Positions 4,860-57,667 of a stretch of DNA of 64,000 nt are shown one piece after another. The DNA comes from Candidatus Falkowbacteria bacterium (lineage in GTDB: Bacteria; Patescibacteriota; Patescibacteriia; CAIXNZ01). Location: assembly GCA_963774955.1 (NCBI GenBank), contig CAVZGV010000003.1:386981-450980 (forward strand). The letters run 5' to 3'. Below the pieces are notes generated by a model. It ran no database searches. It had not been told where the DNA came from and worked only from the letters and a program-made list of their open reading frames with translations. Position 1 is the first letter of the stretch, and every line of letters begins with the position of its first letter. A program made the position numbers and the translations under genes.

Positions 4860-5915
4860 ATGCTCTATAAAGAAAAATACAAACCTCTTAAATTTCCCCG
4901 CGACGAGCAAAAGCATGACCACATTATTGAATGGTGGTATTTTAACGGTAATTTAAAAAGTGAAGACGGCCGTTTGTTTTCCTATATGAACACTTTGTTT
5001 GCGACTAAGCCGAATCTGGTAAAAATTCCGTTTTTGAAAAATATTCCCTTAAAAACTTTGTTTTTCTCCCATTATTTATTAAGTGATAATAATAAACATA
5101 AATTCTGGGAAAAGGTTAACCCTCTATGTTTTTTGGATGCCAATAGTTTTACCAAACCGCTTTTATGGGCTGAATATGATAATTCCTGCTTGATTGAAGA
5201 ATACAAATTGTTTAATTTCCATATTACCAATGATTTTGTGGATCTAAATTTAAAAGCTATAAAAAAGCCTTTACTAATTAATAACAAGGGATTTATTGAC
5301 CTGGGTGTAAAAACAACTTATTATTATTCGTTGCCTCGTTTGCAGACCAGCGGTTTGATTAGGATTAATGATGAGTGGTTGTCAGTTAAAGGCTTAAGTT
5401 GGATGGACCATCAGTGGGCGCAGACTCCAATGACCAAGGATGACAAATGGACCTGGTTTTCTCTGCAATTAAATAATGGCTGGGATATAATGGCGGTAAT
5501 TTACGGTGATCAGGCTAAACTAGCCCATGCCAGCCTTATGGATAAGGGCAATAGGATCAAAACAACAAATAATGTTTTTTTAAAAAATTTACCGATTAAA
5601 TATGCCAGTAAAGAAACCGGCGCCGAATATCAGCTGGGCTATGAAATTTTCTTGCCTGACTGGAATCTCAAAGTTACAGCCAAACCCTATAATAAAGCTC
5701 AGGAAATGGTTTTCGGCACTATAAATTATTGGGAAGGCGGTCTGAAAATCGAAGGTAAAATAGGTGAAAAAAATATCAGCGGCCAGGGATTTTTGGAACT
5801 GGTCGGCAGCCCCATGAAAAAGAGCCTGATGCGGGTATATTTGAATAAATTTGAAAAAAACGGGTTTAAGGGCTGGAAAGCTGAGGTGCTTGACAAAATT
5901 AAAATATATAGGTAA
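4860..5915 (+). CDS. CrtC/AttH-like (hydroxyneurosporene-synthase-type lipocalin fold) protein
   Basis: N-terminal FPRDEQKHDHIIEWWYFNGNL motif is characteristic of the CrtC/AttH family. Assignment rests on this motif only. Confidence 0.45.
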   Translation: MLYKEKYKPLKFPRDEQKHDHIIEWWYFNGNLKSEDGRLFSYMNTLFATKPNLVKIPFLKNIPLKTLFFSHYLLSDNNKHKFWEKVNPLCFLDANSFTKPLLWAEYDNSCLIEEYKLFNFHITNDFVDLNLKAIKKPLLINNKGFIDLGVKTTYYYSLPRLQTSGLIRINDEWLSVKGLSWMDHQWAQTPMTKDDKWTWFSLQLNNGWDIMAVIYGDQAKLAHASLMDKGNRIKTTNNVFLKNLPIKYASKETGAEYQLGYEIFLPDWNLKVTAKPYNKAQEMVFGTINYWEGGLKIEGKIGEKNISGQGFLELVGSPMKKSLMRVYLNKFEKNGFKGWKAEVLDKIKIYR

Positions 5916-5944: not shown

Positions 5945-7813
5945 ATGGCTATTAACCGCATAAAACTGAATAGCCAGTCACTTAAAAAGGAATTCGCTAA
6001 GGATTACCAGGATTTTTTTTCCAGATCAATGATTATCACCTCGGCTCCGGGGACCATAACCTGGGCTGGTGATTATGCGGTCATGGAGGGCGGATTTGCC
6101 ATTCTGCAAAAAATTCCCCTGAGAGTCTATATCGGTTTGGAACTTAATACTAATGACAAAACTGAAATCGGAGACTTTAAGTATTTTTCAAAGTCCAAGG
6201 GACAGTTTAAAAATTGCGAATTGGAACTGCCGGTAAAAAATAACCTGGTAAGATTTGTCGACCATTACCTGGAAGATGTGGAAAAGGATATTCATCTGAA
6301 AATAAATATTTTAAGTGAAGTATCTCCAGGCAGGGGACTTAATCTCTCGGGTGCCTTATCAGCCAGTTTAGCTTTGGCTTTGGAATTGTATTTCAAAAAA
6401 ATAAAAATCAAGGAGATGGAAAAATGGAAACAGACTGACTTGACCACTTTAACCAGAAAAATCGACCTTAAATTCGATCAGGTCTTTCGTTTGTCATGGA
6501 AGATGAACGCTATCTTTCACGGTAATGTCTCTTCGGGCGGTTCTTCATTTGCCCCATTTATTTATACGCCTTTTCCGGTGGTCTATTTTTCCGAAAAAAG
6601 AGCAGAAATAAACGATAAGGAGAATTTTTCTAATATTAGATTCCCCAAGTATTTGGACGGAGATTGGCGGGGGTATGAGCAGATATTTTATGGGGCCATT
6701 AAGTTTGAAGAATTATTTAATTATAAATCATTACCCAATTGGCCGATTGATTTCGGGGCAATATATTCCGGGGATGAAAGAATGACGGCGACAACACATG
6801 GAACGATCGGCGAAATCAGAGATATCCTGAAGACAACAACTGATTTGGTTAAGGAAGATTTCGCGCCTTATATGGCGAATTTGCCGGTAACTCCCTATTT
6901 TTATAAATTAGCGACCAAACACGGCTGGCGCGGACTGTGGAATATTTACGTGGATCCGACTATTGTTTCCAGTATGGAAGTCTTAAATGCTTTTCGTGAT
7001 TTATTTGAAAAAGGTTTGGCCGATAAATCAATTAAAAATCTTTTTGCCGCTTTGAACAGAATGTCTGCAATTTATCAGGTTTTGGAATTATCTTCGCCGT
7101 TATTCCAATATATTCAGAAATATCTTAATGATGATATGATAAGGTTGGGAGACCCTCACGGCGCGGCTACCAAGCCGTTGGGGTGCGGTAAAAAGGGGGA
7201 TTTGTTATTTGTTTTGCCTTATCATGGACTCCGCGATCAGATTGATAGGGTCATTAACGAGATGATTGAAGAAACCAAGGAACATATGTATCTGGATTAT
7301 GCTTCATGGTATGACGGTATTGAAGAGGAAGGGGCTAAACTCGAGCAATTTCTGGAAGGCAAAATATATTCTGAGTTTATTTCACGTGGGGCTGTTTTGA
7401 TCAAACATTTAAATTATAAAGGATTTATTCATAAAGATTTGTATACTCAGGAGGAGTTTCATAAAATGATACCCGACGCGGATTTACTGATGGATGAAAT
7501 CGACGGTAAAATTTATATTAAAGGTACACAACTGACATCTAAAGAATTGCATTCCGCAACGGCTACTATAAGTATTCTTAAGGAGCTAATTAATAAGCCG
7601 GGTGAAGCCGTGGCCAATGCTACTTTACCAATCAGTAGTTATACTCAGGACAGAAATGAACTGCAAAGCAAGATTATTACGCCCCTATGCAAAATTATCC
7701 AAAAGAATACTGGCCGTAAACTGTCATTTAAAATTAACGGCGGTATCACTAATTTCACCGTTAAATTGGGTAGCACAGGTGTGGATATCCTTTTGGTAAA
7801 AAGAATTTTTTAA
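5945..7813 (+). CDS. GHMP-kinase-family-like protein, unusually long (622 aa)
   Basis: N-terminal SAPGTITWAGDYAVMEGG resembles the GHMP APG…GEH motif. SPGRGLNLSGALSASLALAL resembles the PxGSGLGSSAA phosphate-binding loop. The C-terminal ~300 aa are unassigned. Confidence 0.45.
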   Translation: MAINRIKLNSQSLKKEFAKDYQDFFSRSMIITSAPGTITWAGDYAVMEGGFAILQKIPLRVYIGLELNTNDKTEIGDFKYFSKSKGQFKNCELELPVKNNLVRFVDHYLEDVEKDIHLKINILSEVSPGRGLNLSGALSASLALALELYFKKIKIKEMEKWKQTDLTTLTRKIDLKFDQVFRLSWKMNAIFHGNVSSGGSSFAPFIYTPFPVVYFSEKRAEINDKENFSNIRFPKYLDGDWRGYEQIFYGAIKFEELFNYKSLPNWPIDFGAIYSGDERMTATTHGTIGEIRDILKTTTDLVKEDFAPYMANLPVTPYFYKLATKHGWRGLWNIYVDPTIVSSMEVLNAFRDLFEKGLADKSIKNLFAALNRMSAIYQVLELSSPLFQYIQKYLNDDMIRLGDPHGAATKPLGCGKKGDLLFVLPYHGLRDQIDRVINEMIEETKEHMYLDYASWYDGIEEEGAKLEQFLEGKIYSEFISRGAVLIKHLNYKGFIHKDLYTQEEFHKMIPDADLLMDEIDGKIYIKGTQLTSKELHSATATISILKELINKPGEAVANATLPISSYTQDRNELQSKIITPLCKIIQKNTGRKLSFKINGGITNFTVKLGSTGVDILLVKRIF

Positions 7814-7840
7814 ACGTAAAATATAATAAGTTTTTGAAAA

Positions 7841-7866
7841 AACCGGGTTTTGTCCCGGTTTTTTCT
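7841..7866 (+). terminator. rho-independent terminator
   Basis: AACCGGGTTTTGTCCCGGTTTTTT. Confidence 0.65.
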
Positions 7867-8169
7867 TTTTGTGTCCTTAGACTGTATGGCTCCTGATGAT
7901 TTATGATCAAGGCAGAGAATCAAAAATAGATCTTTACAACCAAATATATTAAGAAGTTTGCAATCAGCCAGTTTAACCTTAAATTACTTTTTATCGGTCT
8001 ACTTATTATCATTTTCTTTGTTTTGATTTTAAAGGTCAATATTATATCGACCTATATGAACATACATAAATAAAATCAACAAAGGATATAAATAGATTGA
8101 TAACAATTAAGATAAACCGGCTGTTTCCAGATTTTTTGCTGATAAACAATGTAACAAGGAGGTCTTGTC

Positions 8170-8484
8170 ATGGCAACGGAAATTGTTATTTTATCGGTTC
8201 ATACTGAAGGCAATGACAGCTGGGAAACTCCCCATGCTCACTGTCCCAAACATGGGTCAAAAATTTATGCCCATGACGGAAGGGTTAACAAGATTACCTG
8301 CGATTTTTGCGGGTCTATCATTGTTTATGGGGGTTGCAGCAAATGTACCGGGAGTGTAAATCATCCTTTCTGTGACGAGTGCGGCCGAGATTTTTGCCCC
8401 AATTGTGCCGGCAGATCCAGGTTGGGCGGTTATAGCCCCGGTGGCGGTTTGTGTGCCAGTTTTTTGTGCAAGAAGTGCGGTTAG
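8170..8484 (+). CDS. small Cys-rich (multi-CxxC zinc-ribbon-like) protein
   Basis: RBS AAGGAGG. 104 aa with seven or more CxxC/CxxxC pairs (CPKHG…CDFCG…CSKCTG…CDECG…CPNCAG…CKKCG). Confidence 0.55.
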   Translation: MATEIVILSVHTEGNDSWETPHAHCPKHGSKIYAHDGRVNKITCDFCGSIIVYGGCSKCTGSVNHPFCDECGRDFCPNCAGRSRLGGYSPGGGLCASFLCKKCG

Positions 8485-8587
8485 AACTTATTGACTGAAA
8501 AAAAGGGGGTGGTAAAAACAAGTTAGTGTAAATTAGGCGGGTAATGCTTTTCTCCGAATAATCAAACTCAAAACAGGGAGGGGCAAA

Positions 8588-8797
8588 ATGCCTTGTATCA
8601 ATTGTCCTATGCTCGGCGGATCGAGTGGGGCGGATCTTTTCAACCGTGAAATGGATCGGCTGAGAGACCCGCTCAATTTTTCAGGATTGATGAATCGTAT
8701 TAACGATCCTACAGGGTTGCAACGTACAGGAAGTCTTTTTCGTTATCAACCTTCGACTGCGCTCTTGCGTGCATGGGAAGATGCGAAGAAGCCTTAA
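8588..8797 (+). CDS. hypothetical small protein
   Basis: RBS GGGAGGGG. 69 aa. Sits in a locally GC-richer patch. Confidence 0.35.
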   Translation: MPCINCPMLGGSSGADLFNREMDRLRDPLNFSGLMNRINDPTGLQRTGSLFRYQPSTALLRAWEDAKKP

Positions 8798-8860
8798 AGA
8801 CGCGTCGGTCCTTAACCAAACAACTTAACATCAAACAAAAAACAAAAAGGAGACTTCAAA

Positions 8861-9054
8861 TGAGCGGCATCGCACCCATCAACCCCGGCCAGACGTTCAA
8901 TATTTTCGAAAACGATCATCTCACGCAGATCCAGCATCATGAAACTTACGTGGATGTGGTCGACCATTTCGATCATGGCGATCTGGAGGTCGATTGCCAT
9001 CTGGTCCACAAGATTGACCGTCTCGGCAACATCGACCTCGACATCTTGCCGTAA
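8861..9054 (+). CDS. hypothetical small acidic His/Asp-rich protein
   Basis: RBS AAAGGAGA precedes ATG 8861. Preferred over the overlapping minus-strand ORF 8812-9117, which lacks an RBS. Confidence 0.35.
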
Positions 9055-9228
9055 GGCAAAACCAAAATCAGGGTTTTCAAAAAAACTCGTTGAATCAAAA
9101 AAATTCCGCGAGACCATGGATCCACAGGATCCATAAAGGGGTTGCTTAAAAAACAGCCCCTTTTCTATAAAATTTGCCTTATTAATATATTTATGTTAAA
9201 TTTCAGCATCAATCTCAAGGAGGCTAAA

Positions 9229-9870
9229 ATGACTGAAAAAGAACTGCTGGAGAAACTGGCCACTTTTTCGTTGATTGAAGAATTGAAGTACCTTTTTATT
9301 TACGGCAGCAACAGCGATCTGGAAGCCGATGACAAGGATATTGATTTACTGGCTGTTGTTAATAATCCCAGAGGATATCTTTATTACAAGGTTGAAAAGA
9401 CCGATCAGGTTGATTTAATCATTGTAAATGAGGATTACTTCCAGCGGGCTATCAGCAACTTCGAACCATTGGTGCTAGAACCGTTGCTTAAAGGCCGACT
9501 TTTGCGAAGTTTTGCTTCAGTAGAAGTGGATTTCAGACAAAAGATATGGCAGCAGGAATTTCACAAGAAAAATCTGGTTTATCTGACCAGCTTTGCCTTT
9601 ACCCTCCTGTGCTGGGCTTTTGAACGCTGGGACAAGAAGAACTATGAAGAATGCCTGATGAACCTGACCTATGTTTTTAGCTATGCAGCCATGGCTGAAA
9701 ATTTAAGCAAATACAAAGAACCGGTTTTTTACTGGCAACTTTTGGCTCATCCTGATTATGGCTGTCTGAGAAAAATCAGGGCGAGTTTGAAACTTAAACA
9801 GTTTGATCAGACAGAAGAATTGCTAAACGAAACTTTTGCCTGGTTAAAGGGTCAGCTGAGTAAATTATAA
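9229..9870 (+). CDS. nucleotidyltransferase-fold (MNT-like) domain protein
   Basis: RBS AAGGAGG precedes ATG 9229 (MTEKELL…). YGSNSDLEADDKDIDLLAVV fits the minimal nucleotidyltransferase GS…[DE]x[DE] motif. A helical C-terminal half follows. Confidence 0.5.
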   Translation: MTEKELLEKLATFSLIEELKYLFIYGSNSDLEADDKDIDLLAVVNNPRGYLYYKVEKTDQVDLIIVNEDYFQRAISNFEPLVLEPLLKGRLLRSFASVEVDFRQKIWQQEFHKKNLVYLTSFAFTLLCWAFERWDKKNYEECLMNLTYVFSYAAMAENLSKYKEPVFYWQLLAHPDYGCLRKIRASLKLKQFDQTEELLNETFAWLKGQLSKL

Positions 9871-9905
9871 GTTTAAGCCGTTCCGACATGTCGGAACGGC
9901 TTTTT
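9871..9905 (+). terminator. rho-independent terminator
   Basis: GCCGTTCCGACATGTCGGAACGGC followed by TTTTT. Immediately followed by the TTTTTGTCC x2 motif. Confidence 0.75.
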
Positions 9906-9976
9906 GTCCTTTTTTGTCCTTAGTCAGTTGCAGGGTAATTAAATTATGATAAAAGTATTATTATTAATCTAGTTTT

Positions 9977-12142
9977 ATGAAAAAATTAATTAGAGTTACA
10001 TTTTTTCTGGGGATCCTGGTGATTTTAGGTTTTAGTAGTCACAGTTCCTTTGCCGCTCAAAGCAATTTAACCTCCAGGGTTAAAGGCTATATTGTACTCA
10101 GCGTTGAAGAACACGGGGAAGCATATTATGTTGATCCCGTAACTTTAAAAGCGTATTACATGCAAAGTCCTGACAAGGCTTTTGAAATAATGAGAACTTT
10201 CGGCTTGGGGATTACTGATGAAAATTTGGCAAAAATTCCTTTGGCTGGAACTAGTCAAACAGGGGATTGGCAATTACGTAATAAATTAGCCGGGCGGATA
10301 TTATTACAGGTGCAAAAAAACGGGGAAGCCTGGTATGTCTACCCTGGCGATTTAAAAAGATATTATTTGGGTAGCCCGTTTGGAGCCTTTAATTTAATGA
10401 GAGCAAAAGGTTTGGGTATTTCCCACACTGATTTGTCTGATTTAACTGTTTGGAATGTTACAAATCCCATTAAATATAGTAACTCAGTGGAGACCATGAA
10501 AATGCTGACCGCCAAGGCAATTGAAAGTAGATATATAAGCTATACTTTGTCAGGTGACTATGAGAAATATGCTGAAAATAAATATTATGCCTATGGCGGA
10601 CTTGATTTAACATTTTATTGTCCACCACCACAAAGCTCTTTTCCTAATGCTTATTTGATTACTGGATATGGCGCTAGTGTGCCGTATGAGTGGGAACCAA
10701 TCAATCCCGTAGCGACCTATTGGCAATCGGTAAACAAGCTTTCTATGGTAGCCTATTCTCAGGATTTTACCATGGTCTGTCAAAAAAATGATGGTAGTTT
10801 GTATAAGAAAACTATTACTATCACCGAAAAAACAAGACCGCTTAGCACTCTTACTCAGTCAAAAGAAAATATTTGGGATTTTACCAAATGGCATGATGAA
10901 TCATCCGGCCCAGGTTTGGACAGCGGCTTAGCAGAGACTTATTATGACGGTACAGGAAAAAAAGTCATTAAATTAAATTCCATGAAAGGTGGTAATTATT
11001 ATATGGAAAAGTCATATTATTTAACGGTTGATAACAGTAGTGACCTGAATAATATTGTCAGTTGGGATTGGAAACAAGATTCGATTGATTCTCCTTACGG
11101 TTATGTCGGGGTGTATATTCAGTTTATGAATGCCCAAAAATTTACTAACCGCAGTACAGAATCATCTTATGTTCTTGGTACATATGATCTGTTTCGCCAT
11201 ACCGGTGATTTCTACAAATATAGCTGTGACAATCGCTATGCCGAATCAACTTTAGGCCCCAGTAAATATAACTGCAATGAGGAAATCGGAGCCAAAGACA
11301 GCTGGCAAAATGTGCAGTTAAATCTTCAGAATATCCTAAACAATAAGCTTTATGGGGTAGCCAAAGATCAGATTAAAGCTGTAAAAATAAAAATTGTATC
11401 ATACAATAATGCAGGCAGCGGTGCTGTGGCGTATTGGCGTGATTTTCAGATTAATTCAACCTCAGCCGGGACTTTGCAATCTGCTGACTATTTCAAGTTA
11501 AGCCCATATAATTTTAGCGTTAAAAAAGGCGGCGATCTTATTACTACCGACGGCGAGTATGTTAGCCCGTGGGATGGTAACTATTCATTTGGTTATAACG
11601 GTGATTATCTTTTCAAAGGAGTTAATTCAAAGCCTGCGGAAGGGTGTAATATACGTAAGTTTATTTATAATTTTCAGGATTTTGAAAATAAAACCGTGGA
11701 AATTACTTTTAAACGAAGTGCTTATGGGGCTTTGGATTTTTCTTTACAAAACGAGGCCGGTCAGTTTGTAGATTTTGACAGCGATTCAAATGATGTGCCG
11801 TCTAATCTGGTTCGGGCCTGTAATAATTATTTTAAATGTGATTATACCTGTAATGATTATGCCGGCGGCTGGATAGGCAGTGAATATGACTGGGGTCAGC
11901 TGACCAATGACAATCAGTGGCATACTTTATCAATCAGTAAATTTCCGGATAAATTTATTTTTAACCTCGATAATGGTAAAAAGATTAAAGAGGTTAGCTC
12001 AGTCTTCGGCTGTAATTTGGCCGGTAATGTCAGGGGGATGGATTATTCCGGCCAAGTCAGTTTAATGGTTAGCGGCTGGAGCTGTAAATGGAAAAGCGAT
12101 GATTTGAATTATGAAGTCAAGGAAATTAAAATAAGCCGATAA
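9977..12142 (+). CDS. large secreted protein with two ~50-aa 'ILLQVxxxGEAWYVYPxxxxRYYL…GLGI' repeats
   Basis: Signal peptide MKKLIRVTFFLGILVILGFSSHSSFAAQ. Repeats at ~aa 35-90 and 105-160. The same repeat pair occurs in ORF 29443-30405. Confidence 0.6.
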   Translation: MKKLIRVTFFLGILVILGFSSHSSFAAQSNLTSRVKGYIVLSVEEHGEAYYVDPVTLKAYYMQSPDKAFEIMRTFGLGITDENLAKIPLAGTSQTGDWQLRNKLAGRILLQVQKNGEAWYVYPGDLKRYYLGSPFGAFNLMRAKGLGISHTDLSDLTVWNVTNPIKYSNSVETMKMLTAKAIESRYISYTLSGDYEKYAENKYYAYGGLDLTFYCPPPQSSFPNAYLITGYGASVPYEWEPINPVATYWQSVNKLSMVAYSQDFTMVCQKNDGSLYKKTITITEKTRPLSTLTQSKENIWDFTKWHDESSGPGLDSGLAETYYDGTGKKVIKLNSMKGGNYYMEKSYYLTVDNSSDLNNIVSWDWKQDSIDSPYGYVGVYIQFMNAQKFTNRSTESSYVLGTYDLFRHTGDFYKYSCDNRYAESTLGPSKYNCNEEIGAKDSWQNVQLNLQNILNNKLYGVAKDQIKAVKIKIVSYNNAGSGAVAYWRDFQINSTSAGTLQSADYFKLSPYNFSVKKGGDLITTDGEYVSPWDGNYSFGYNGDYLFKGVNSKPAEGCNIRKFIYNFQDFENKTVEITFKRSAYGALDFSLQNEAGQFVDFDSDSNDVPSNLVRACNNYFKCDYTCNDYAGGWIGSEYDWGQLTNDNQWHTLSISKFPDKFIFNLDNGKKIKEVSSVFGCNLAGNVRGMDYSGQVSLMVSGWSCKWKSDDLNYEVKEIKISR

Positions 12143-12155
12143 ATTAAAAATTAAA

Positions 12156-12190
12156 AAACTGCCAAGATACTTCTGCGGCAGTTTTTTAAA
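12156..12190 (+). terminator. rho-independent terminator
   Basis: ACTGCCAAGATACTTCTGCGGCAGT followed by TTTTTT. A second hairpin AAGATCCCGCGTGGCAGGATCTT follows at 12197-12219. Confidence 0.6.
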
Positions 12191-12224
12191 TAAAAAAAGA
12201 TCCCGCGTGGCAGGATCTTGGGGG

Positions 12225-12450
12225 TGTAAGGAGTGGGCGGCGCCTGCATAAAGGAGGAGTTACTGACTCGAAGGGAAAAAGGGGCAGGCGCCGCCCGTGG
12301 GTTGGTTAAAGAACTAAAAGATTTTAGAGAGGGGCCGTTCCTGCTTAACAATTTGATCAGAAGCTTTGCTTTGGAAGTTCTGAATAATTGGTCGCTGCTT
12401 ATCCGAGGGATTTGGTCTCAGCATTAGGACTAAGCAGGAACGGCCCGAAG
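12225..12450. ncRNA. candidate structured RNA or structured element of unknown class
   Basis: GC-rich island between convergent genes. A perfect 13-bp stem GGGCGGCGCCTGC (12233-12245) pairs with GCAGGCGCCGCCC (12284-12296). A perfect 16-bp stem GGGCCGTTCCTGCTTA (12332-12347) pairs with TAAGCAGGAACGGCCC (12431-12446). Extra internal pairing AGAACT/AGTTCT. Only short overlapping ORFs are present on both strands. Confidence 0.35.
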
Positions 12451-12507
12451 TAAATTCGATATTACTAGTCTAACAAAACTTTTTAGTTGAGTCAATTAAA
12501 TAAATAA

Positions 12508-12534
12508 AGCCTTCCGCATAGCGGAAGGCTTTTT
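12508..12534. terminator. bidirectional rho-independent terminator
   Basis: AAGCCTTCCGCATAGCGGAAGGCTTTTT, with A/T runs on both sides. Serves the minus-strand operon ending at 12539. Confidence 0.65.
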
Positions 12535-12538
12535 GTCA

Positions 12539-12739
12539 TCATTTGATGGTGATTTCAGTCTGGCAATTGGGGCAGGTAATTGTTGCCCCTTTGCTGACAA
12601 CCAAAATGTTGTTTGTGGTCAGTGCATGTTTTTGATCTTCGTTTAAATCTGCTTCAAGCACATGGAACCTGATTTCGGTTTTGCACCGGCAGATAAACGA
12701 TTCGACTATTAACGGCGCAGGCTGGTCATTCGTATCCAT
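12539..12739 (-). CDS. small zinc-ribbon-like protein
   Basis: 66 aa with CRC…CPNC. Lies 17 nt downstream of the 12757-13722 gene on the same strand, so probably operonic. Confidence 0.45.
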   Translation of the reverse strand: MDTNDQPAPLIVESFICRCKTEIRFHVLEADLNEDQKHALTTNNILVVSKGATITCPNCQTEITIK

Positions 12740-12756: not shown

Positions 12757-13722
12757 TTAGTTTTGCTTAAGAAAGGTTTCAATGCGGTCAAAAAGTTGTT
12801 CTTGATCGAACTGGCTGCTTCCATTACGAGGGGAACCGCCAATGGAATCAGAGCCGTCCCAACGGTCAGTGTTGTCCGGGGCAATGCCTTCAAGTTCGTT
12901 GAGATAGTTAAAAAGTGTTTTGGGATCAAAGTCCGGAGCGACCAGATTGGAACGCTTGCCAATGACAAAGCGATGTTTAGCTTTGGAGTTTTGACCCAGA
13001 TAAATGACATAACAATTGATGCCGTCTTTGAACAGACCGTAACGAGCCTGGCGTCCGATTTCTTTGACCATGGCCCAGCCAGTTCCTGATTTGATCAGTT
13101 CATAGCGCATGTCAGCACCGATTGTTTGGCCCTGACCAATGGCATATTTCATGATGTTGTCCATCAGCGCCTGAAGCAGAATCAGCATTTCGGATGCAGA
13201 CAGTACGGCCAGCTTGCCTTCGGTGCGCAACTGGTCATATGGCTGAAAGATCCAGAAAATCGATTCCATGACATGCAGGTTGGGGAAGTATGGATATGAT
13301 CCGGCTGTGGCATCCAGGTTGCCTTCGACATTGACCAGCGCGTTAAGCGGTGCGCCGGCAGAATGGCTGGGGTTTAAAAGCAGCCAGATGGCCAGGGCAG
13401 TATCCTGGTCAATGTCATTGACCCAGATATGGCCTTTGATCTGGCCCTTGTCCCGGAAATTATCCAGTAAGCCCAGGTTTAGCGCGACCTGAACTTGGCC
13501 GCAGGTGGCTCGGGCAGCCAGACGCAGAATGCCGTCATGATGGTCAAAGTTGTATTTGCCGGCACGAGTTTCTGTAAACGGACCTCCGTTACAAAAACCG
13601 TCCAGGGCAATTGAATTTTTAGGGAACTTATTACTTAAAAATTCTTCCCGGGTCACAACTTTGCCAGGGATGATGTGAACTTCAAAAGTTCCGCTGTTAA
13701 ATATGATTTCATTCTCCATTCT
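12757..13722 (-). CDS. hypothetical protein (321 aa)
   Basis: RBS AAGGAGGAAG precedes ATG at 13722 (MENEIIF…). The upstream extension in the ORF track lacks an RBS. No confident family; the FDHHDG motif was noted but the other DHH-family motifs are absent. Confidence 0.5.
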   Translation of the reverse strand, partial: RMENEIIFNSGTFEVHIIPGKVVTREEFLSNKFPKNSIALDGFCNGGPFTETRAGKYNFDHHDGILRLAARATCGQVQVALNLGLLDNFRDKGQIKGHIWVNDIDQDTALAIWLLLNPSHSAGAPLNALVNVEGNLDATAGSYPYFPNLHVMESIFWIFQPYDQLRTEGKLAVLSASEMLILLQALMDNIMKYAIGQGQTIGADMRYELIKSGTGWAMVKEIGRQARYGLFKDGINCYVIYLGQNSKAKHRFVIGKRSNLVAPDFDPKTLFNYLNELEGIAPDNTDRWDGSDSIGGSPRNGSSQFDQEQLFDRIETFLKQN

Positions 13723-13850: not shown

Positions 13851-13905
13851 TATTGATGGATAGAACCTTTAAAATTAGAGGAAAATAAAGATGAAGGAGG
13901 AAGAA

Positions 13906-14937
13906 ATGTCCAAGAAAATTCAGGTACCCACTACTGATTATTACGCCTTGTTGGGCGTACATGCCTGCGCCAGAGAGGAAGTTATTCAGGCGGCTCAAAA
14001 AGCACTGCAGAAAATTTATCATCCTGATAATATTAAAACCGGTGACGAAAAAATGTCACAACAGATCAATGAAGCTGCTACGGTGCTTTTGACTCCCAAG
14101 AAGCGTTCCGAATATGATCGCGAGCGCCTCAAAGCAGCTGAACAGCCGATTGTCGGCTATCGCTTGCTTAAAGAAATCGCCGAAGGCGGGTTTGGGACGA
14201 CATATCTGGCTGAACATCTTTTAACCGGAGAATATGTCTGCATCAAACACTGTCATCGCATTTCTGCTGCGGATAATGAGATTATTCTGCAGGAAGCCAA
14301 GGCTATCTGGAATCTGCGTCATTTTGCGATTCCGATTGTCCGTGATCTAATCAAAATGGCCGACGGCAGCCTGGCTCTGGTTATGTCCTATATTGAAGGA
14401 CCGACATTGGAACAGGTTGTCAAAAAGAAGGGCGCGCTGCATCCTGAAAATGTCTGCTGGATTACCCAGCGGATTTTGAATGCTCTGAAGTACATGCATT
14501 TTCACGGGGTGATTCACGGCGATGTCAAGCCGGCGAATACGATTGTTCAGCCCAAAGAGCACCTGATTACCTTGGTTGATTATGGCCTGGCCATGATCCG
14601 GCCGCGAGTTGATTCTGAAAGTCTGGGGTATACGCCTTACTTTGCTCCTCCGGAGCAGGAGAGAGGCGAGACCCTGCTGCCGGAATCTGATTTCTATGCG
14701 CTGGGTATGACCATGATTTTCGCCTTAAGCGGGGATATTGATCTGGTCGTAAAAAAGGAAGTGCCGGAAGACACGCCTGAGCCACTGTGCAAGTTTATCA
14801 GTAAACTGATTGTGCGCGATGTGCTGGGCCGTCCCAATTGGCAAAAGCTCGACCTCTTTGAAGAAATTCAAAAGGTCAGGGAACAATGTTTTGGACGTAA
14901 AGAGTCCAATCTTAAAGACTTGTTTGACGACAAATGA
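13906..14937 (+). CDS. J-domain (DnaJ N-terminal) fused to a Ser/Thr protein kinase domain
   Basis: RBS GAAGGAGGAAG precedes ATG 13906. J domain DYYALLGV…KIYHPDN (HPD motif). Kinase Gly loop EGGFGTTY, VCIKH (Lys), catalytic loop HGDVKPANT, DYG (DFG-like), PYFAPPE (APE). Confidence 0.75.
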   Translation: MSKKIQVPTTDYYALLGVHACAREEVIQAAQKALQKIYHPDNIKTGDEKMSQQINEAATVLLTPKKRSEYDRERLKAAEQPIVGYRLLKEIAEGGFGTTYLAEHLLTGEYVCIKHCHRISAADNEIILQEAKAIWNLRHFAIPIVRDLIKMADGSLALVMSYIEGPTLEQVVKKKGALHPENVCWITQRILNALKYMHFHGVIHGDVKPANTIVQPKEHLITLVDYGLAMIRPRVDSESLGYTPYFAPPEQERGETLLPESDFYALGMTMIFALSGDIDLVVKKEVPEDTPEPLCKFISKLIVRDVLGRPNWQKLDLFEEIQKVREQCFGRKESNLKDLFDDK

Positions 14938-46650: not shown

Positions 46651-47274
46651 ATGAAAACCTCAATTATCACCCCCAGGCAAAAGCAATTACTTCAAATTAT
46701 CCATGACTGGTTAAAAACTGAAGGTAATATTCCTTCATTTGAAGAAATGAAAAATGAACTTGGCGTAAACTCAAACCAAGCAGTTTTGGATTTATTAGAG
46801 AAATTGGAGGAGAAGAAAATGATTAAAAGAAACGAAGGACTAGCAAGATCAATAAATATTTTACAAAAGGGTTATGAATCACTTGAAGTTGCGCCTTTAG
46901 TAAATGTTGTTGGATTGGGTTCATGCGGACCTTTAGTTGAATTATTTGAGCAGAAAGATGTTTGGATGGAATTATCTCCGGAAGTTCATCAGTTTTCACA
47001 TGAGTTAATTATTATTAGGGCATTTGGCGATTCCATGATTGGGGCTGGTATTATTGATGGCGATTTGTTGCTTTTTACTAAAGCTAAAGAATTTAAGGAT
47101 AATGAAATTGTATTAGCCAGAACTATGGATGGTACAACCGTTAAACGATTAATAAATCGCGATAAAAAAACATATTTTCAGCCTGAAAATCCTAAATATG
47201 AAAGAATACCCGTGACTGAAGAAACTTATATTTTAGGTAAATTAATTAAAAATTTATCAAGAAATTATGCTTAA
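46651..47274 (+). CDS. lexA: LexA-like repressor (wHTH plus S24 peptidase)
   Basis: N-terminal LTPRQKQLLQIIHDWL…PSFEEMKNELG…NQAVLDLLEKLEEKKMIKR. C-terminal S24 block AFGDSMIGAGIIDGDLLL…TVKRL (Ser/Lys dyad). Stop overlaps the next gene start by 8 nt. Confidence 0.75.
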   Translation: MKTSIITPRQKQLLQIIHDWLKTEGNIPSFEEMKNELGVNSNQAVLDLLEKLEEKKMIKRNEGLARSINILQKGYESLEVAPLVNVVGLGSCGPLVELFEQKDVWMELSPEVHQFSHELIIIRAFGDSMIGAGIIDGDLLLFTKAKEFKDNEIVLARTMDGTTVKRLINRDKKTYFQPENPKYERIPVTEETYILGKLIKNLSRNYA

Positions 47275-49210
47275 AAAAGAATTATCTAGCCAAATCATAA
47301 ATAAAATCTTCAAAGATCCCGAAGTGCAGTATGGGCTAAAAGAATTTAAGGGCATTAAGCTTGCTGATGTCTTGGAAATTTTTGAAATTGAAAAAGGTAA
47401 GTATTATATAAAGGATCCTGTACGCGCTAAGGATATTTTAGTTTATAATGAGGAAAAAAATTTAAGCAAACCGGAGGAAATTATCCGTCAGCTTTGGCTT
47501 CATAAGATTATTAAAGATTATGGCTACCCGATAGATCGTATTGGGATTGAAAAAGACATCCATTTTGGCAGAGAAATTCATGGCAAAGCCGCTGATATTG
47601 TCATTTATCAAAAAGACAAGGAAACACCTTGGGTAATTATTGAATTAAAAAGTCCTGATGAGAAAAAAGGGTTGGAACAGTTAAAAAGTTATGTTAATTC
47701 CGAAGGAGCACCAATCGGCGTTTGGTCAAACGGCAACGAAAGAGTGATTTTATACCGATCACACCCTCATGAATTTGAAAATACTTTAAGGGATATCCCC
47801 AGAGCCGATCAATCAATTGAAGATGTGTTGGCAGAAGATGTGACCTTATCTGACTTGGAAAGCGATTTTGATTTGGTGGATATTATTAAAATTTTGGAAG
47901 AATTGGTTTTGGCTAATTCCGGGATGGATAGTTTTAATGAGATTTTTAAGCTGATATACGCAAAACTTTTTGATGAAAAAGAAGCTAAGAAGCGCGAAAA
48001 AAAGATTTTATATTTTAGACAATATAAGGATCCTGAATTGACCATGGCGCAAGTCAGCAAATTATTTGATTCAGCCAGGAAAGAATGGCCGGGAATCTTT
48101 AATGATTATGAGAAGATAGAATTGTCTCCCAATCATCTGGACGTCTGCGTGGGGCAATTGGAAAGAATTAAATTATATGATGCTAATCTGGAAGTTATTG
48201 ATTCCGCTTTTGAATATTTATTGCCTGATGTTGCTAAGGGCAAGAAGGGACAGTATTTTACGCCTCGCCATGTAATTAATATGGCGGTAAAAATGTTAAG
48301 TCCTCAGCCAAATGAATATGTCATTGACCCAGCCTGCGGTTCCGGCGGATTTTTAATTCACGCCATGCGTTATGTGTATGATAATTATTTGCATTTGGAT
48401 AGGGAGGCAATGAGTGATTACGCCAAAAAATATTTATTCGGCATTGATTTTGACGACAAATCAGTTAAGATTTCCCGCGCGCTCATGCTGATTGCCGGTG
48501 ATGGCAAATCTCATATTTTTAAATTAAATTCTTTAAATCCTAGGGATTGGATGGGGAATGAGGCGGAAAAGGAAAGAGCCAGAGGCGAATTAAGAAATTT
48601 GCTGCATAAATTTGATGATTATGATAAAAATAAAGACAATCAGGAAAATTTTAGATTCTTTGATTACGACATTTTACTTTCCAACCCTCCCTTTGCCGGA
48701 GAAATAATTGAAAAGTCGCTTTTAAACCAATATGAATTGTCAAAAAATGAAGCCGGTAAATTAAAAAATAAAATGGAACGCCATATTTTATTTATTGAGC
48801 GTTCATTGCAATTGGTCAAACCAGGCGGCAGATTGGCAATAGTTTTACCGCAAGGCGTTTTTAATAATACCAACATGCAGCAGATAAGGCAGTTTTTAAT
48901 GGACAAGGCAAGAATTTTAGCGGTAGTCGGGCTGAATGTGAATACTTTTAGACCTCATGCAGGAGTGAAAACATCAGTCCTATTTTTACAAAAATTTAAG
49001 GATAAGGAAAAACAGCCCAAAGATTATAATATTTTTATGGCCGTCTCCAAAAAGTCAGGCAAGGACAATTCAGGGGATTATGTTTATAAAAAAGATGCTG
49101 AAGGCAAGTTGGCGGTTGACATGAAAGGTAAGAAGGTTTTAGATCATGATTTGGACGAAATTGCGGAAGAATTTTTAAAGTTTGCGAAAAAGGAGGGTTT
49201 TAATTTTTAA
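47267..49210 (+). CDS. fused PD-(D/E)xK endonuclease / gamma-class N6-adenine DNA methyltransferase (Type IIB BcgI-A-like or Type IIG-like RM subunit)
   Basis: N-terminal AADIVIY…VIIELKSP (D…ExK). MTase motif I VIDPACGSGGFL and motif IV LSNPPF. 647 aa. Followed by a separate HsdS-like gene. Confidence 0.65.
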   Translation: MLKKELSSQIINKIFKDPEVQYGLKEFKGIKLADVLEIFEIEKGKYYIKDPVRAKDILVYNEEKNLSKPEEIIRQLWLHKIIKDYGYPIDRIGIEKDIHFGREIHGKAADIVIYQKDKETPWVIIELKSPDEKKGLEQLKSYVNSEGAPIGVWSNGNERVILYRSHPHEFENTLRDIPRADQSIEDVLAEDVTLSDLESDFDLVDIIKILEELVLANSGMDSFNEIFKLIYAKLFDEKEAKKREKKILYFRQYKDPELTMAQVSKLFDSARKEWPGIFNDYEKIELSPNHLDVCVGQLERIKLYDANLEVIDSAFEYLLPDVAKGKKGQYFTPRHVINMAVKMLSPQPNEYVIDPACGSGGFLIHAMRYVYDNYLHLDREAMSDYAKKYLFGIDFDDKSVKISRALMLIAGDGKSHIFKLNSLNPRDWMGNEAEKERARGELRNLLHKFDDYDKNKDNQENFRFFDYDILLSNPPFAGEIIEKSLLNQYELSKNEAGKLKNKMERHILFIERSLQLVKPGGRLAIVLPQGVFNNTNMQQIRQFLMDKARILAVVGLNVNTFRPHAGVKTSVLFLQKFKDKEKQPKDYNIFMAVSKKSGKDNSGDYVYKKDAEGKLAVDMKGKKVLDHDLDEIAEEFLKFAKKEGFNF

Positions 49211-49236
49211 GCATTTAATTATTAATAATTAGGAAT

Positions 49237-50052
49237 ATGAAAGATCTTATATCTCAAATTAAACAAAGTACCATATTTCTCGGGTTTATGAGAAATAATG
49301 AACCTGTCTATGTTGGAACTGGGTTTCTTATTCAGGTTGATGATGTTTTTTATGTTGTTACGGCAAAACATGTTGTTGAAAAAAAATATAGTCAAATGTA
49401 TATATTCCTAAATAATAAAAATTTTGGTGTAAATTTTAAGTCTATTCAAGAAATACTTAATCAGGGCTGGTCATGGAAAAAACATGGTGACAATGATGTT
49501 GACATCGCTTTATTGCCATTCCCGTTAGCTCCAACTGATAAATCAAAATTTATTCCACATACTTTATTTATTCAAGAAATAGCTGACATATCAGAACTTG
49601 TAAATTTATTTTTTTTATCGTATCAGCCAGGCATCAATGAGCTAAAAAATGATTCATCAATAAATCCTATAATTAGGAAGGGCGTAATATCAAGAATTAA
49701 TTACGATAAAACTTTTTTTATGGATGGGTTTGCATTCCCTGGAAATAGCGGCAGTCCCGTATTTTTGTTGCCAACGCCTATAAAAATTCAAAATGGTTTA
49801 ATGCAAATTGGAGGGCCGGTAGAAATTAAATTGGCAGGAATAATTGGGGCATATATTCCATACAGAGATGTAGCAGTAAGTGAGCAAACCGGAGAAGTTA
49901 GAGCTATTTTTACTGAAAACACTGGGATAGCACTTGTTCACTCAACAGCTCTTCTCCAGGAGATTATTAAGGGTGAAGATTTTCAAGAACAACATAAAAA
50001 ATTGACAAAAATAAAATTGATTCCTCAGGCGGAAAAAGAGCATTCTTCTTAG
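49237..50052 (+). CDS. cytoplasmic trypsin-like (S1/chymotrypsin fold) serine peptidase
   Basis: No signal peptide. His in VVTAKHVV, Asp in VDIALLPF, Ser in FPGNSGSPVFL. Confidence 0.55.
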   Translation: MKDLISQIKQSTIFLGFMRNNEPVYVGTGFLIQVDDVFYVVTAKHVVEKKYSQMYIFLNNKNFGVNFKSIQEILNQGWSWKKHGDNDVDIALLPFPLAPTDKSKFIPHTLFIQEIADISELVNLFFLSYQPGINELKNDSSINPIIRKGVISRINYDKTFFMDGFAFPGNSGSPVFLLPTPIKIQNGLMQIGGPVEIKLAGIIGAYIPYRDVAVSEQTGEVRAIFTENTGIALVHSTALLQEIIKGEDFQEQHKKLTKIKLIPQAEKEHSS

Positions 50053-50129
50053 TAGTTGGTATCTTTATTGATATTTTATCCCTATCTGTAGCCGTAAGTG
50101 GATAATCAAAATTAACTTAATTTTATTAT

Positions 50130-50966
50130 ATGGATGAGCGATTAAATAAAATGATTCTCGATATGGGAAAGCAATATGGCGAACATGCTAAAATTTTGAG
50201 CGAAAAAGTCAATGCGGAAATGAAAAAAAATTTTAAGGTAATCCATGAGATTACAGAAAGTTTAAAAAAACAAATTGAAGATATCAGCCCCGCAATTTTA
50301 ATGGTTCAAGAATCTATTCGGCAATTTGAGGAATCTAAGGAGTTTCATAAATTTGAGCAGCAAGCGTTTAATAATAGTGGTTGGTGGATAACCCCTTCAT
50401 TAATGGAAGTTCCAGTATACAAATTCCGTAATGCTGTAATTAAATACAATAAGGGTCAAAAAATTGCTATAACTAATTTGTATATATCGATTTATCAAAA
50501 GAATAATTGTAAATATTTGGGGCAGGTATTAAATAGTTGGGATAGTAATAAATACTTTAAACCATGGATGAAAATTATAAGGCAAGCATTAGAAGCTCAT
50601 GTGGATAAAAAATATTTTCTGTCAGTACCCGCATTATTGTTAGTAGCCGAGGGTATTTCAACTAATTATTGTAAAAAAAATAAGATTAAAATTCCCTATA
50701 AAGAAAATTCAAAAGGAGGTGAGAAAATCAAAAAAGCATTAAATTATATTAAAAATAATAAAGAAATTGAATTTTTAAATGCAGATTTTTTTATACTTGC
50801 TCTTGATAATATTATCTATGCTCAGACTTATAAAATTAATAAAAAAACTTTTAAATATTTCCTTAATCGCCATGCGGTTTTGCATGGTGGAACTACAGAC
50901 TATGGCACTTTGAAGAATTCATTAAAGTGTTTTATGTTGTTAGATTTTTTAAGTATTTTAAAATAA
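50130..50966 (+). CDS. hypothetical protein (278 aa), partner of the trypsin-like peptidase
   Basis: No recognisable motif. AT-rich. Its stop abuts the HsdS start (50966/50967). Confidence 0.5.
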   Translation: MDERLNKMILDMGKQYGEHAKILSEKVNAEMKKNFKVIHEITESLKKQIEDISPAILMVQESIRQFEESKEFHKFEQQAFNNSGWWITPSLMEVPVYKFRNAVIKYNKGQKIAITNLYISIYQKNNCKYLGQVLNSWDSNKYFKPWMKIIRQALEAHVDKKYFLSVPALLLVAEGISTNYCKKNKIKIPYKENSKGGEKIKKALNYIKNNKEIEFLNADFFILALDNIIYAQTYKINKKTFKYFLNRHAVLHGGTTDYGTLKNSLKCFMLLDFLSILK

Positions 50967-52292
50967 ATGACTTACTCAATAATCCCCAAATCCCACTTGG
51001 AAGGCGCTCTGCGTCTAGACCCGGAATACTATCAGCCGGAGTATTTGGAATTGATAAAAAAACTCGAGAAGTTGACTGATAAAAAATTGAAAGATTATGC
51101 TATTAACATTTCCAGGGGGTTTAAACCAATCAAGGGCGACTTTTTTAATTATATTGAAATATCAGAAATTGATTTAGGGAATGGTACTTTTAATGAATCT
51201 AAAATTCTAGGTGAGGAAGCACCGGATAGGGCGCAAAAAGTTGTAAAAGAGGGCGACGTTATTGTGTCTACTGTCAGGCCTAATAGAAATGCTGTTTCTT
51301 TGATCAGGGCAGAGCATAACAATTTTGTTGCTTCGAGCGGTTTTTGCAATATTGAACCTCGAAAAGTTTCTTCAGAGTATTTATTCGCTTATCTAAAAAC
51401 TAATCATGTTATAAAGCTATTGGACAGATTGACTTCCGCAAGCATGTATCCCGCGGTAACAGAGGAAGACATAATGAATTTACCTTTTTATGTTAAAAAT
51501 GAGCAAGCTATTATTAAATTAGTAAAAGAAGTTTTTGAGCAAATTGAGAAATCGAAATCGCTTTACGCCCAAGCCGAAGATTTACTGCTTGAAGAATTGG
51601 GTATTAATGATTTGGAATCAGAAGAAGATTTAACTTTTACAGCTACTTTAAAGGATTGCCTGCAAGCTGTTCGTATTGATGCTGATTTTTTTCAGCCGAA
51701 GTATGAGAGGATTTTAAGTAAAATAAAAGTTAAAAGGGAGAAATTAAGTAATTTAGTTTCTTTACAAAAGGGGATTGAGCCAGGCAGTGAAGAATATGCG
51801 GAAGAAGGCAAGCCGTTTATTCGCGTATCCAATATGTCCAAGTTCGGCTTAAATGATAATAATCAGCAATATTTGAGCGAGAAAATGTATAATGAATTGA
51901 AAGATAAATATCAGCCTCAAAAGGGAGATATTTTATTAAGTAAGGATGCGACTCCTGGCATTGCGGTTTTACTAGAAAAAGATGTTGAGGGTATTATCTC
52001 TGGCGGTACTTTACGATTAAAAATAAAAGATAAAACTTTAGTTCCTCAATACTTATCTTTAGTTTTAAATTCTGTAATTTGCCAAATGCAAATCGAAAGA
52101 GATGCTGGTGGGTCAATTATTATTCACTGGAGACCTGATCAAGTGGAAAATACAATTATTCCTATTTTACCCATCAAAATCCAGCAAAAAATTGCTGATT
52201 TGGTCAGTGAATCTTTTAAGTTAAGAAAAGAGGCCAAGGAACTACTAGAAGAAGCGAAAAAGAGGGTGGAGGAGGAGATTGAGAAGAAATAA
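50967..52292 (+). CDS. hsdS: restriction-modification specificity subunit (HsdS-like, two TRDs)
   Basis: GDVIVSTVRPNRNAV, YPAVTEEDIMNLPFYV, IPILPIKIQQKIADLV and a C-terminal coiled-coil spacer. 441 aa. Confidence 0.7.
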   Translation: MTYSIIPKSHLEGALRLDPEYYQPEYLELIKKLEKLTDKKLKDYAINISRGFKPIKGDFFNYIEISEIDLGNGTFNESKILGEEAPDRAQKVVKEGDVIVSTVRPNRNAVSLIRAEHNNFVASSGFCNIEPRKVSSEYLFAYLKTNHVIKLLDRLTSASMYPAVTEEDIMNLPFYVKNEQAIIKLVKEVFEQIEKSKSLYAQAEDLLLEELGINDLESEEDLTFTATLKDCLQAVRIDADFFQPKYERILSKIKVKREKLSNLVSLQKGIEPGSEEYAEEGKPFIRVSNMSKFGLNDNNQQYLSEKMYNELKDKYQPQKGDILLSKDATPGIAVLLEKDVEGIISGGTLRLKIKDKTLVPQYLSLVLNSVICQMQIERDAGGSIIIHWRPDQVENTIIPILPIKIQQKIADLVSESFKLRKEAKELLEEAKKRVEEEIEKK

Positions 52293-52295
52293 ATA

Positions 52296-52320
52296 AAAAT
52301 CTCATCTAAAATATTTTTTA
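52296..52320. repeat. REP-like intergenic motif AAAAATCTCATCTAAAATATTTTTTA (copy 1)
   Basis: Variants at 54369-54395, 54714-54740, 55689-55715, 59652-59688 (CCCCTAAGGGG variant), 60718-60745 and 62154-62181. Always sits between a stop and the next start. Confidence 0.6.
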
Positions 52321-52336
52321 AAATAACTAAAAATCT

Positions 52337-57553: not shown

Positions 57554-57629
57554 AAATCTCATCCCCAAAGCCAATCCCAATTGCGCTTATTGCAATTATC
57601 GGTCAGAGGCAAGGGAAGTGGAGGAATAA
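57543..57629 (+). CDS. candidate 28-aa Cys-containing peptide (MLSRNLIPKANPNCAYCNYRSEAREVEE)
   Basis: ATG preceded by GAGGAATAAGT. Overlaps the stop of the Cas4-like gene. Lies ~40 nt upstream of the rSAM/SPASM gene. Contains CAYC. Confidence 0.25.
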   Translation: MLSRNLIPKANPNCAYCNYRSEAREVEE

Positions 57630-57667
57630 AAATTTTATTTAAAATATTTTCAAAACAATTTTTTAAG

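Follow-up and report, generated by a model that had tools for sequence, protein, structure and literature searches.

Does the GC-rich, heavily base-paired segment that lies between two convergent genes of a Candidatus Falkowbacteria bacterium encode a structured RNA and, if so, from which strand is it read and what might it do? The question arises at positions 12225-12450 of the window, that is, of the whole 64-kb stretch of DNA that was analysed, to which all coordinates refer unless another locus is named. The segment had been described in an initial annotation as an unclassified structured RNA candidate resting on two long perfect stems, and both stems hold, every position being paired: GGGCGGCGCCTGC (12235-12247) pairs with 12284-12296 to give a 13-bp stem around a loop of 36 nt, not 38 as first counted, and GGGCCGTTCCTGCTTA (12332-12347) pairs with 12431-12446 to give a 16-bp stem that encloses 83 nt. 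The fold is far more stable than those of dinucleotide shuffles, above all on the minus strand (z = -7.1 to -7.6, vs. -4.4 on the plus strand). The segment is GC-rich as reported (0.515 at 12200-12399 vs. 0.396 in the window), although the contrast is modest, because coding DNA at 13200-13500, about 1 kb away, reaches 0.55. It does lie between the 3' ends of convergent genes, a plus-strand gene of 721 aa with its stop at 12142 and a minus-strand gene of 66 aa with its stop at 12539. We consider that the locus holds a real non-coding RNA gene on the minus strand, with a probability of about 0.8; its structure, conservation, strand and non-coding nature are documented in what follows.

The extent of about 225 nt first given for the element falls short of the complete unit, which occupies about 12190-12460 on the minus strand. 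Its predicted promoter is sigma-70-like (TTGACT-17 nt-TAGACT, with a TG-extended -10 box) and lies at 12467-12495, which places the start near 12460; an intrinsic terminator is predicted at 12190-12219, where a 10-bp stem (12197-12219) is followed by U7. Both neighbouring genes carry terminators of their own (12506-12532 and 12151-12189) which, together with the promoter and terminator on the minus strand, point to an independent minus-strand unit, a predicted structured non-coding transcript of about 270 nt from 12460 to 12190 whose ends are set by those two signals. Read from its 5' end, this unit contains the 5' arm of the outer helix P1 (GGGCCGUUCCUGCUUA, 12431-12446), a branched P1 interior (12348-12430), the P1 3' arm (UAAGCAGGAACGGCCC, 12332-12347), both arms being recognised by stem pairing and covariation, and a linker with a small variable hairpin (12297-12331), which holds GUUCUUUAACC at 12304-12314 as numbered on the plus strand. 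The second helix, P2, follows, with its 5' arm (GGGCGGCGCCUGC, 12284-12296), a G-poor, C/U-rich loop (12248-12283) that contains UUUUUCCCUU at 12271-12280 and the anti-Shine-Dalgarno-like CUCCUCCUUU at 12250-12259, and its 3' arm (GCAGGCGCCGCCC, 12235-12247), recognised by stem pairing. An unpaired tail (ACUCCUUACACCCCC, 12220-12234), with a sub-threshold Yfr1-like match discussed below, leads into the terminator. The covariance model R1 scores 12219-12460 on the minus strand at 132.8 bits. Each P2 arm contains a GGCGCC palindrome (12239-12244 and 12287-12292), so that the P2 helix has a self-symmetric segment of 6 bp. Because of this palindrome, the P2 5' arm alone can form an alternative small terminator-like hairpin with the U-rich start of the loop, which the terminator scan flagged in the window and in two homologues, L003 and L018.

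Homologues were found through the neighbouring proteins and by one metagenome pattern scan. They comprise L003 (GCA_041308785.1), L018 (JGI Ga0315284, the one recovered by the pattern scan), L019 (GCA_026395755.1, with an RNA region identical in L020) and L023, which is cut by the end of its contig. Five lineages thus carry the RNA (the window, L003, L018, L019/L020 and L023), all in the same chromosomal neighbourhood and orientation, with a UvrD/PD-(D/E)XK helicase gene on one side and an AttH/CrtC-like lipocalin gene and a radical-SAM gene on the other; related loci also carry genes for a class II tRNA synthetase, DciA, RNase HII and TatD. In four of these five lineages (all but L003) the gene directly upstream of the RNA encodes a small protein with four cysteines, which in the window is the 66-aa product of 12539-12739 (minus strand); its invariant C-x-C ... 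C-P-x(1-3)-C pattern is, by eye, that of a zinc ribbon. L003 has the RNA preceded by a different gene, with no zinc-ribbon gene adjoining. The reverse is seen in three close relatives, L001, L002 and L021, which lack the RNA and carry the zinc-ribbon gene. The RNA is also absent from L024-L026, more distant loci that carry homologues of a 320-aa protein encoded upstream of the zinc-ribbon gene in the window, and it is therefore not tied to the 320-aa gene.

The homologues fold strongly as well (z = -8.2 in L018 and -12.9 in L003), and they have a common layout: a short pyrimidine-rich leader, P1, the linker, P2, a C/U-rich tail and the terminator. The P1 helix has the consensus GGGYCGCUCCAGCC...GGCUGGAGCGRCCC around an interior of 82-101 nt that is lineage-specific and cannot be aligned among the homologues. 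The linker varies between 26 and 62 nt and always contains the best-conserved unpaired motif of the RNA, GUUCUUUAACC in the window and GUNCYUUAA in consensus (invariant alignment columns), which often occurs twice (L003, L023 and L019). P2, GGGCGGCGCCUGC...GCAGGCGCCGCCC, closes a loop of 36-57 nt, and its 5' arm is identical in all five lineages. On the other hand, the internal AGAACT/AGTTCT pairing that had been proposed as a further part of the structure is kept in no homologue. The terminator of L018 is preceded by extra hairpins of about 130 nt, so that at 6760-6925 of that locus P2 and the terminator stand about 130 nt further apart than in the window; CACUCCUUAC, unpaired in the window, forms there the 5' arm of the hairpin CACUCCUUacuuuacAAGGAGUG, and it may thus be masked in the L018 lineage.

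A comparative search for compensatory changes had been recommended in the initial annotation, and such changes are present in P1. Since full-length MAFFT alignment misplaced the P1 3' arm, an alignment with the P1 interior trimmed was used; it contains five sequences, one of them truncated, which makes the covariation statistics indicative rather than conclusive. An independent RNAalifold run on it yields P1 and P2 and no other helix. The proposed partners are paired in 97.6% of the cells vs. 35-50% when they are slid by one to three columns, and only 0-1 of 500 shuffles reached the observed pairing values. Double-sided changes occur at five pairs, and four of these lie in P1 (three C-G to U-A and one A-U to U-A). 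Three G-U wobbles (in P1 of L003, P1 of L018 and P2 of L019) would become A-C mismatches on the other strand, which settles the functional strand and speaks for selection acting on the RNA. The two helices vary to different degrees, 12 of the 14 pairs of P2 never changing and 6 of the 14 pairs of P1 doing so, a difference that is not statistically firm with five sequences. At the nucleotide level conservation tracks the helices and not codons. Taken together with the absence of any Rfam match, the two-helix architecture and the compensatory changes of P1 in four other lineages bear out the initial proposal of an unclassified structured RNA.

The transcription signals have their counterparts in the homologues. 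Sense-strand terminators lie 3' of the RNA, at the equivalent place, in L003, L018 and L019, and each locus has a separate terminator that serves the convergent gene. In L019 and L023 the scanning tool called TG-extended promoters with 17-nt spacers at a distance of 20-25 nt from the start of P1; the promoters of L003 (TTGATT-17-TAACAT) and L018 (TTGCTA-17-TAACAT) are weaker, fall below the threshold of the scan and were read by eye. An own promoter and a Rho-independent terminator thus occur on one strand and at a conserved position, all of them as consensus matches, and from such matches we infer the transcription signals. These signals bear on the possibility that the RNA is a structured 3' UTR or a processing product of the upstream operon (the 320-aa and zinc-ribbon genes), or a mere stack of terminator hairpins. 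The RNA has the same orientation as this operon, and GC-rich hairpins are a common sight in the space between convergent genes. However, between the zinc-ribbon gene and P1 stand both a terminator (12506-12532) and a promoter, in an arrangement repeated in L023, and in L003 the RNA follows a different gene. The convergent gene has a terminator of its own, and plain terminators require neither 270-400 nt nor two conserved helices nor conserved unpaired motifs. We therefore regard an origin as 3' UTR, processing product or terminator stack as quite unlikely.

In two further explanations the sequence would act as DNA or as protein. If it were mobile or functioned at the DNA level, as a MITE, a palindromic repeat or a recombination site, this would account for the long perfect inverted repeats, for the patchy presence among close relatives and for the location in a variable island between the AttH-like and UvrD/PD-(D/E)XK genes. 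The initial annotation had itself named a MITE with copies at other loci as the alternative to be considered. However, the element is single-copy in the 64 kb of the window and occurs once or not at all in each related locus, always syntenic and in the same orientation; its repeats are two separate internal hairpins instead of terminal ones, its ends being a promoter and a terminator; and selection on a single RNA strand is suggested by the G-U wobbles together with a depletion of G that is specific to that strand. A mobile element thus appears highly improbable. As for a small protein, it could be encoded by a 64-aa ORF on the plus strand (12233-12427) or by a 66-aa ORF on the minus strand (12151-12351). 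The former has been called by gene callers on a Logan contig, with the same product on record from the 565-kb source contig, and AAAGGAGGAG on the plus strand resembles a ribosome-binding site. Nevertheless, this word has no start codon at a suitable distance; the 64-aa product retrieved only itself among 5.8 billion proteins at E<=10 and had no PHROGs match; the homologues carry different, non-homologous ORFs; and, as stated above, conservation does not follow codons. The chance that the locus encodes a protein is accordingly close to negligible, and a non-coding RNA gene on the minus strand is the reading retained here.

Does this RNA belong to a known family? At the gathering score, Rfam 15 gave no match in the 64-kb window, and the covariance search of the element region (501 nt) that had been suggested at the outset returned, at E<=10, 25 matches that amount to terminator-type noise. 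The RNA regions of the homologues L003, L018, L019 and L023 had no Rfam match either, and ARAGORN found 0 genes. A highly diverged universal RNA might be suspected, as Parcubacteria-type genomes often contain divergent versions of such RNAs and the length recalls a large SRP RNA or a 6S-like RNA. However, 6S, SRP, RNase P and tmRNA models were not among the matches even at E<=10 over the 501 nt, none was found in the homologues and ARAGORN reported nothing; furthermore, close relatives do not have the RNA here, as they would if it were essential. A diverged universal RNA is consequently most improbable. Lying outside the 4227 families of Rfam 15, the RNA founds a new one, of the stand-alone structured small RNA kind.

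Several known RNAs resemble it in part. Yfr1 (RF01116) is a cyanobacterial RNA of 54-69 nt with two stem-loops separated by 16-20 unpaired nucleotides that include the invariant ACUCCUCACAC (PMC2190773). Like Yfr1, the RNA of the window has an unpaired C/U-rich motif between a GC-rich helix and a Rho-independent terminator, and in the window tail ACUCCUUACAC matches 10 of the 11 bases of the ultraconserved ACUCCUCACAC; streamlined genomes and a proposed action through pairing of the motif are common to both. In contrast to Yfr1, the RNA measures 270-400 nt across its family and has the additional P1 and P2 domains. Membership in RF01116 was rejected (19.8 bits vs. a gathering score of 38, E = 0.037 in a 126-nt search), and the tail motif is kept in neither L003 nor L019, the homologues having no Yfr1 match; the tail match is a resemblance, not membership. 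Another example is provided by the C-rich-loop sRNAs of Firmicutes, with which the RNA has in common C-rich, G-free motifs (UCCC, CCUCC) in loops and linkers, stable GC stems and an own predicted promoter and terminator. RsaE/RoxS, the Staphylococcus aureus UCCC-motif sRNAs and the RNAIII hairpins have Shine-Dalgarno regions as their expected targets. C-rich motifs that might pair with Shine-Dalgarno sequences are present here and unpaired in the predicted folds, with an enrichment that does not exceed composition and a target scan that is not specific. Unlike the window RNA, RsaE/RoxS belongs to another phylum, is smaller and has no counterpart of the invariant P2 stem or of GUNCYUUAA, and its Rfam model is absent from the 25 matches at E<=10, there being no similarity in sequence or to the covariance model. 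Finally, as in the orphan RNAs of the Weinberg/Breaker type, which comparative genomics has contributed to Rfam, a GC-rich folded intergenic region with covarying helices stands out in an AT-rich genome; the nearest match to such a motif, Clostridiales-2, was discarded (16 bits vs. 58.6, and on the wrong strand).

With regard to function, the composition of the unpaired regions gives an indication. In the window, G makes up only 4% of the unpaired parts of the minus strand and C 35%, and in all four complete copies the unpaired regions contain 2-7% G and 29-35% C. The motifs of the P2 loop are conserved in position, with UUUCCCUU in the 5' half and CCUCCU in the 3' half; the latter motif appears as CUCCUCCUUU in the window, CCUCCUCCUUU in L018, ACCUCCU in L019 and only a degenerate CACCUUCU in L003. 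Anti-Shine-Dalgarno-like 5-mers reach a density of 14 per kb in the RNAs vs. 1.1-3.4 per kb in the window, and the copies of the window, L018 and L019 have them at one common position within the 3' half of the P2 loop. Their enrichment goes beyond composition-preserving shuffles only in L018 (p = 0.013). Genes in the window use strong ribosome-binding sites of the AAGGAGG type. Given these sites and an exposed C/U-rich loop, the most economical reading would be that of a trans-acting small RNA directed at ribosome-binding sites. The RNA would be transcribed from its own sigma-70-type promoter and would stop at its own intrinsic terminator. P1, whose sequence drifts while its pairing is kept and whose interior varies freely, would be a scaffold only, and the near-invariant P2 would hold open the C/U-rich, G-poor loop of 36-57 nt, the leader, linker and tail being likewise nearly G-free and C/U-rich. 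The exposed UUUCCCUU, CCUCCU and ACUCCUUAC would then pair in trans with the purine-rich ribosome-binding sites of mRNAs, and this pairing would lower or tune their translation. We infer this action from the Gram-positive C-rich-loop sRNAs and the cyanobacterial Yfr1, on which it is modelled, both mechanism and targets being deduced from composition and analogy only; a stand-alone structured small RNA that acts by anti-Shine-Dalgarno base-pairing is thus put forward tentatively, at somewhat less than even odds. Pairing of the P2 loop with start regions reached a median of -16.2 kcal/mol, compared with -10.0 in gene interiors, and shuffled loops reached -14.2 kcal/mol at start regions, so that no specific target emerges from the scan within the window.

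Two features of the RNA do not follow readily from such base-pairing. GUNCYUUAA is not obviously anti-Shine-Dalgarno, and P2 is more invariant than the holding of a loop would need, which suggests sequence-specific recognition. The near-invariance of P2 and the GUNCYUUAA motif fit protein binding at least as well as base-pairing. The main rival explanation is therefore that the RNA binds a protein, as a sponge, a scaffold or a partner in a ribonucleoprotein, and that this protein reads the invariant P2, the GUNCYUUAA linker or both. The 66-aa four-cysteine zinc-ribbon protein, whose gene immediately precedes the RNA on the minus strand, is a candidate for this role. The 12 invariant pairs of P2 contrast with the zinc-ribbon proteins next to them, which are only 33-47% identical, and with the 6 variable pairs of P1, this last contrast being subject to the reservation about five sequences made above; the adjacency of the gene in the window, L018, L019/L020 and L023 and the frequent doubling of the linker motif (L003, L023, L019) are also consistent with protein binding. 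On the other hand, the RNA of L003 has no zinc-ribbon gene beside it, L001, L002 and L021 have the gene alone, and the model of the zinc-ribbon protein (pLDDT 80.7) had no informative match in structure (PDB) or sequence. Protein binding is accordingly held to be possible, though doubtful. Only six proteins, the one of the window included, matched the zinc-ribbon protein among 5.8 billion searched, besides a copy in L001 that was not called as a gene; the gene directly follows that of the 320-aa protein in the window, in L002 and in L001 (where it was read from the sequence) and an HD-domain gene in L019. The 721-aa protein adjoins the RNA in the window and is not its neighbour in the homologous loci.

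A further reading departs from ordinary base-pairing. The RNA might be the RNA half of a previously unknown ribonucleoprotein specific to Parcubacteria, in which the partner, possibly the zinc-ribbon protein, would read the invariant P2 helix with its GGCGCC palindromes. The loop would mimic the 3' end of 16S rRNA (AUC-ACCUCCU-like) and would, as a decoy, engage either Shine-Dalgarno sequences or the factors to which the 16S tail binds. This proposal is speculative and we consider it improbable. If true, such a decoy ribonucleoprotein would allow a bacterium that has very few regulators to control its translation globally. Between base-pairing and protein binding, the anti-Shine-Dalgarno small RNA is the function proposed here.

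The genes around the RNA deserve some comment on their own. The 320-aa protein (12757-13719, minus strand), encoded upstream in the operon of the zinc-ribbon gene, has no match in Pfam, PHROGs, NCBIfam or PADLOC. The search detected 55 members of its family, with a Dissulfurispiraceae bacterium and Frankia among the source names. Its invariant or near-invariant positions include an A-L-D-G stretch, two adjacent His residues, Asp 104 and 106 (numbered on the first sequence) and G-G-S-P-R near the C-terminus. The AlphaFold2 model (pLDDT 92.3) has weak best matches in the PDB (E ~0.01-0.2), several of them DHH-type phosphoesterases, with yeast exopolyphosphatase, the pGpG phosphodiesterase PggH and family II pyrophosphatases in the list; from this model, the protein may be an unrecognised DHH-like phosphoesterase. 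On the other side of the RNA, about 6.2 kb of the plus strand (5945-12142) hold four main ORFs of 622, 104, 242 and 721 aa. Hardly any match to a family was obtained for them, the 622-aa protein having only a faint GHMP/mevalonate-kinase-like N-terminus. These genes sit between the AttH/CrtC-like gene (4860-5915) and the RNA, where L018-L020 have no called gene, and the block looks like an insertion in a variable island. The 64-kb window has no tRNA gene, and nearly all of its long ORFs are on the plus strand. Three plus-strand regions (13891-14937, 47267-53923 and 57581-59653) form a defence-rich stretch for so small a genome; among the products encoded in the window are a DnaJ-Ser/Thr kinase fusion whose kinase domain matches the PADLOC PD-T4-6 models, an N6-methylase with a type I R-subunit N-terminal domain, a specificity subunit, a GmrSD-type endonuclease and a 690-aa radical-SAM/SPASM protein. 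A link of the RNA to known defence or RNA-guided systems was considered and rejected, since PADLOC and NCBIfam gave no such link for the neighbouring proteins and a Pfam search of those that flank the RNA detected neither a transposase nor a reverse-transcriptase nor a nuclease domain.

How widespread is the RNA? The exact P2 pattern was searched in 185,579 species-representative genomes and retrieved only unrelated hairpins of Geodermatophilus; in 241 million metagenome records the P2 pattern gave one true homologue (L018) and five unrelated GC-rich matches. Viral contigs gave 0 matches to the P2 pattern, one match to the linker plus P2 pattern (L012), which was attributed to chance, and nine to the P1 pattern, all chance matches in high-GC phage contigs, none of these nine loci being scored by R1. 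A search of viral contigs for related loci with the 320-aa protein yielded nothing, nor did distant blastn against a phage collection. The family is therefore rare, or else P2 differs in more distant relatives. The hairpins of Geodermatophilus occur in eight species (L004-L011; for instance at 673-741 of L004), with 13-nt arms identical to the P2 arms GGGCGGCGCCTGC / GCAGGCGCCGCCC; two copies were inspected (L004 and L008), and both share one location, just past the end of a gene. The hairpins were rejected as homologues, having neither P1 nor linker and being scored by R1 over the hairpin only (20 bits in L004), and were judged a coincidence in genomes of 75-77% GC, though the hairpin is apparently conserved within the genus.

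In conclusion, the feature is real, and a narrow lineage of Parcubacteria carries a new family of stand-alone structured small RNA. Its function is at the stage of a candidate: by analogy, the RNA may act on purine-rich ribosome-binding sites, with protein binding to P2 as the main rival. The analysis also corrects the spurious 64-aa 'protein' that automatic gene callers place at this locus. The importance of the family is limited by its apparent rarity, as it was found in five lineages and the same P2 stem occurs as a true homologue in none of the 185,579 species-representative genomes. Bacteria of the Candidate Phyla Radiation have tiny genomes and few protein regulators, and a literature search found no paper describing a regulatory RNA in this group. 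A conserved folded RNA with its own predicted promoter would thus offer a rare handle on gene regulation in these bacteria.
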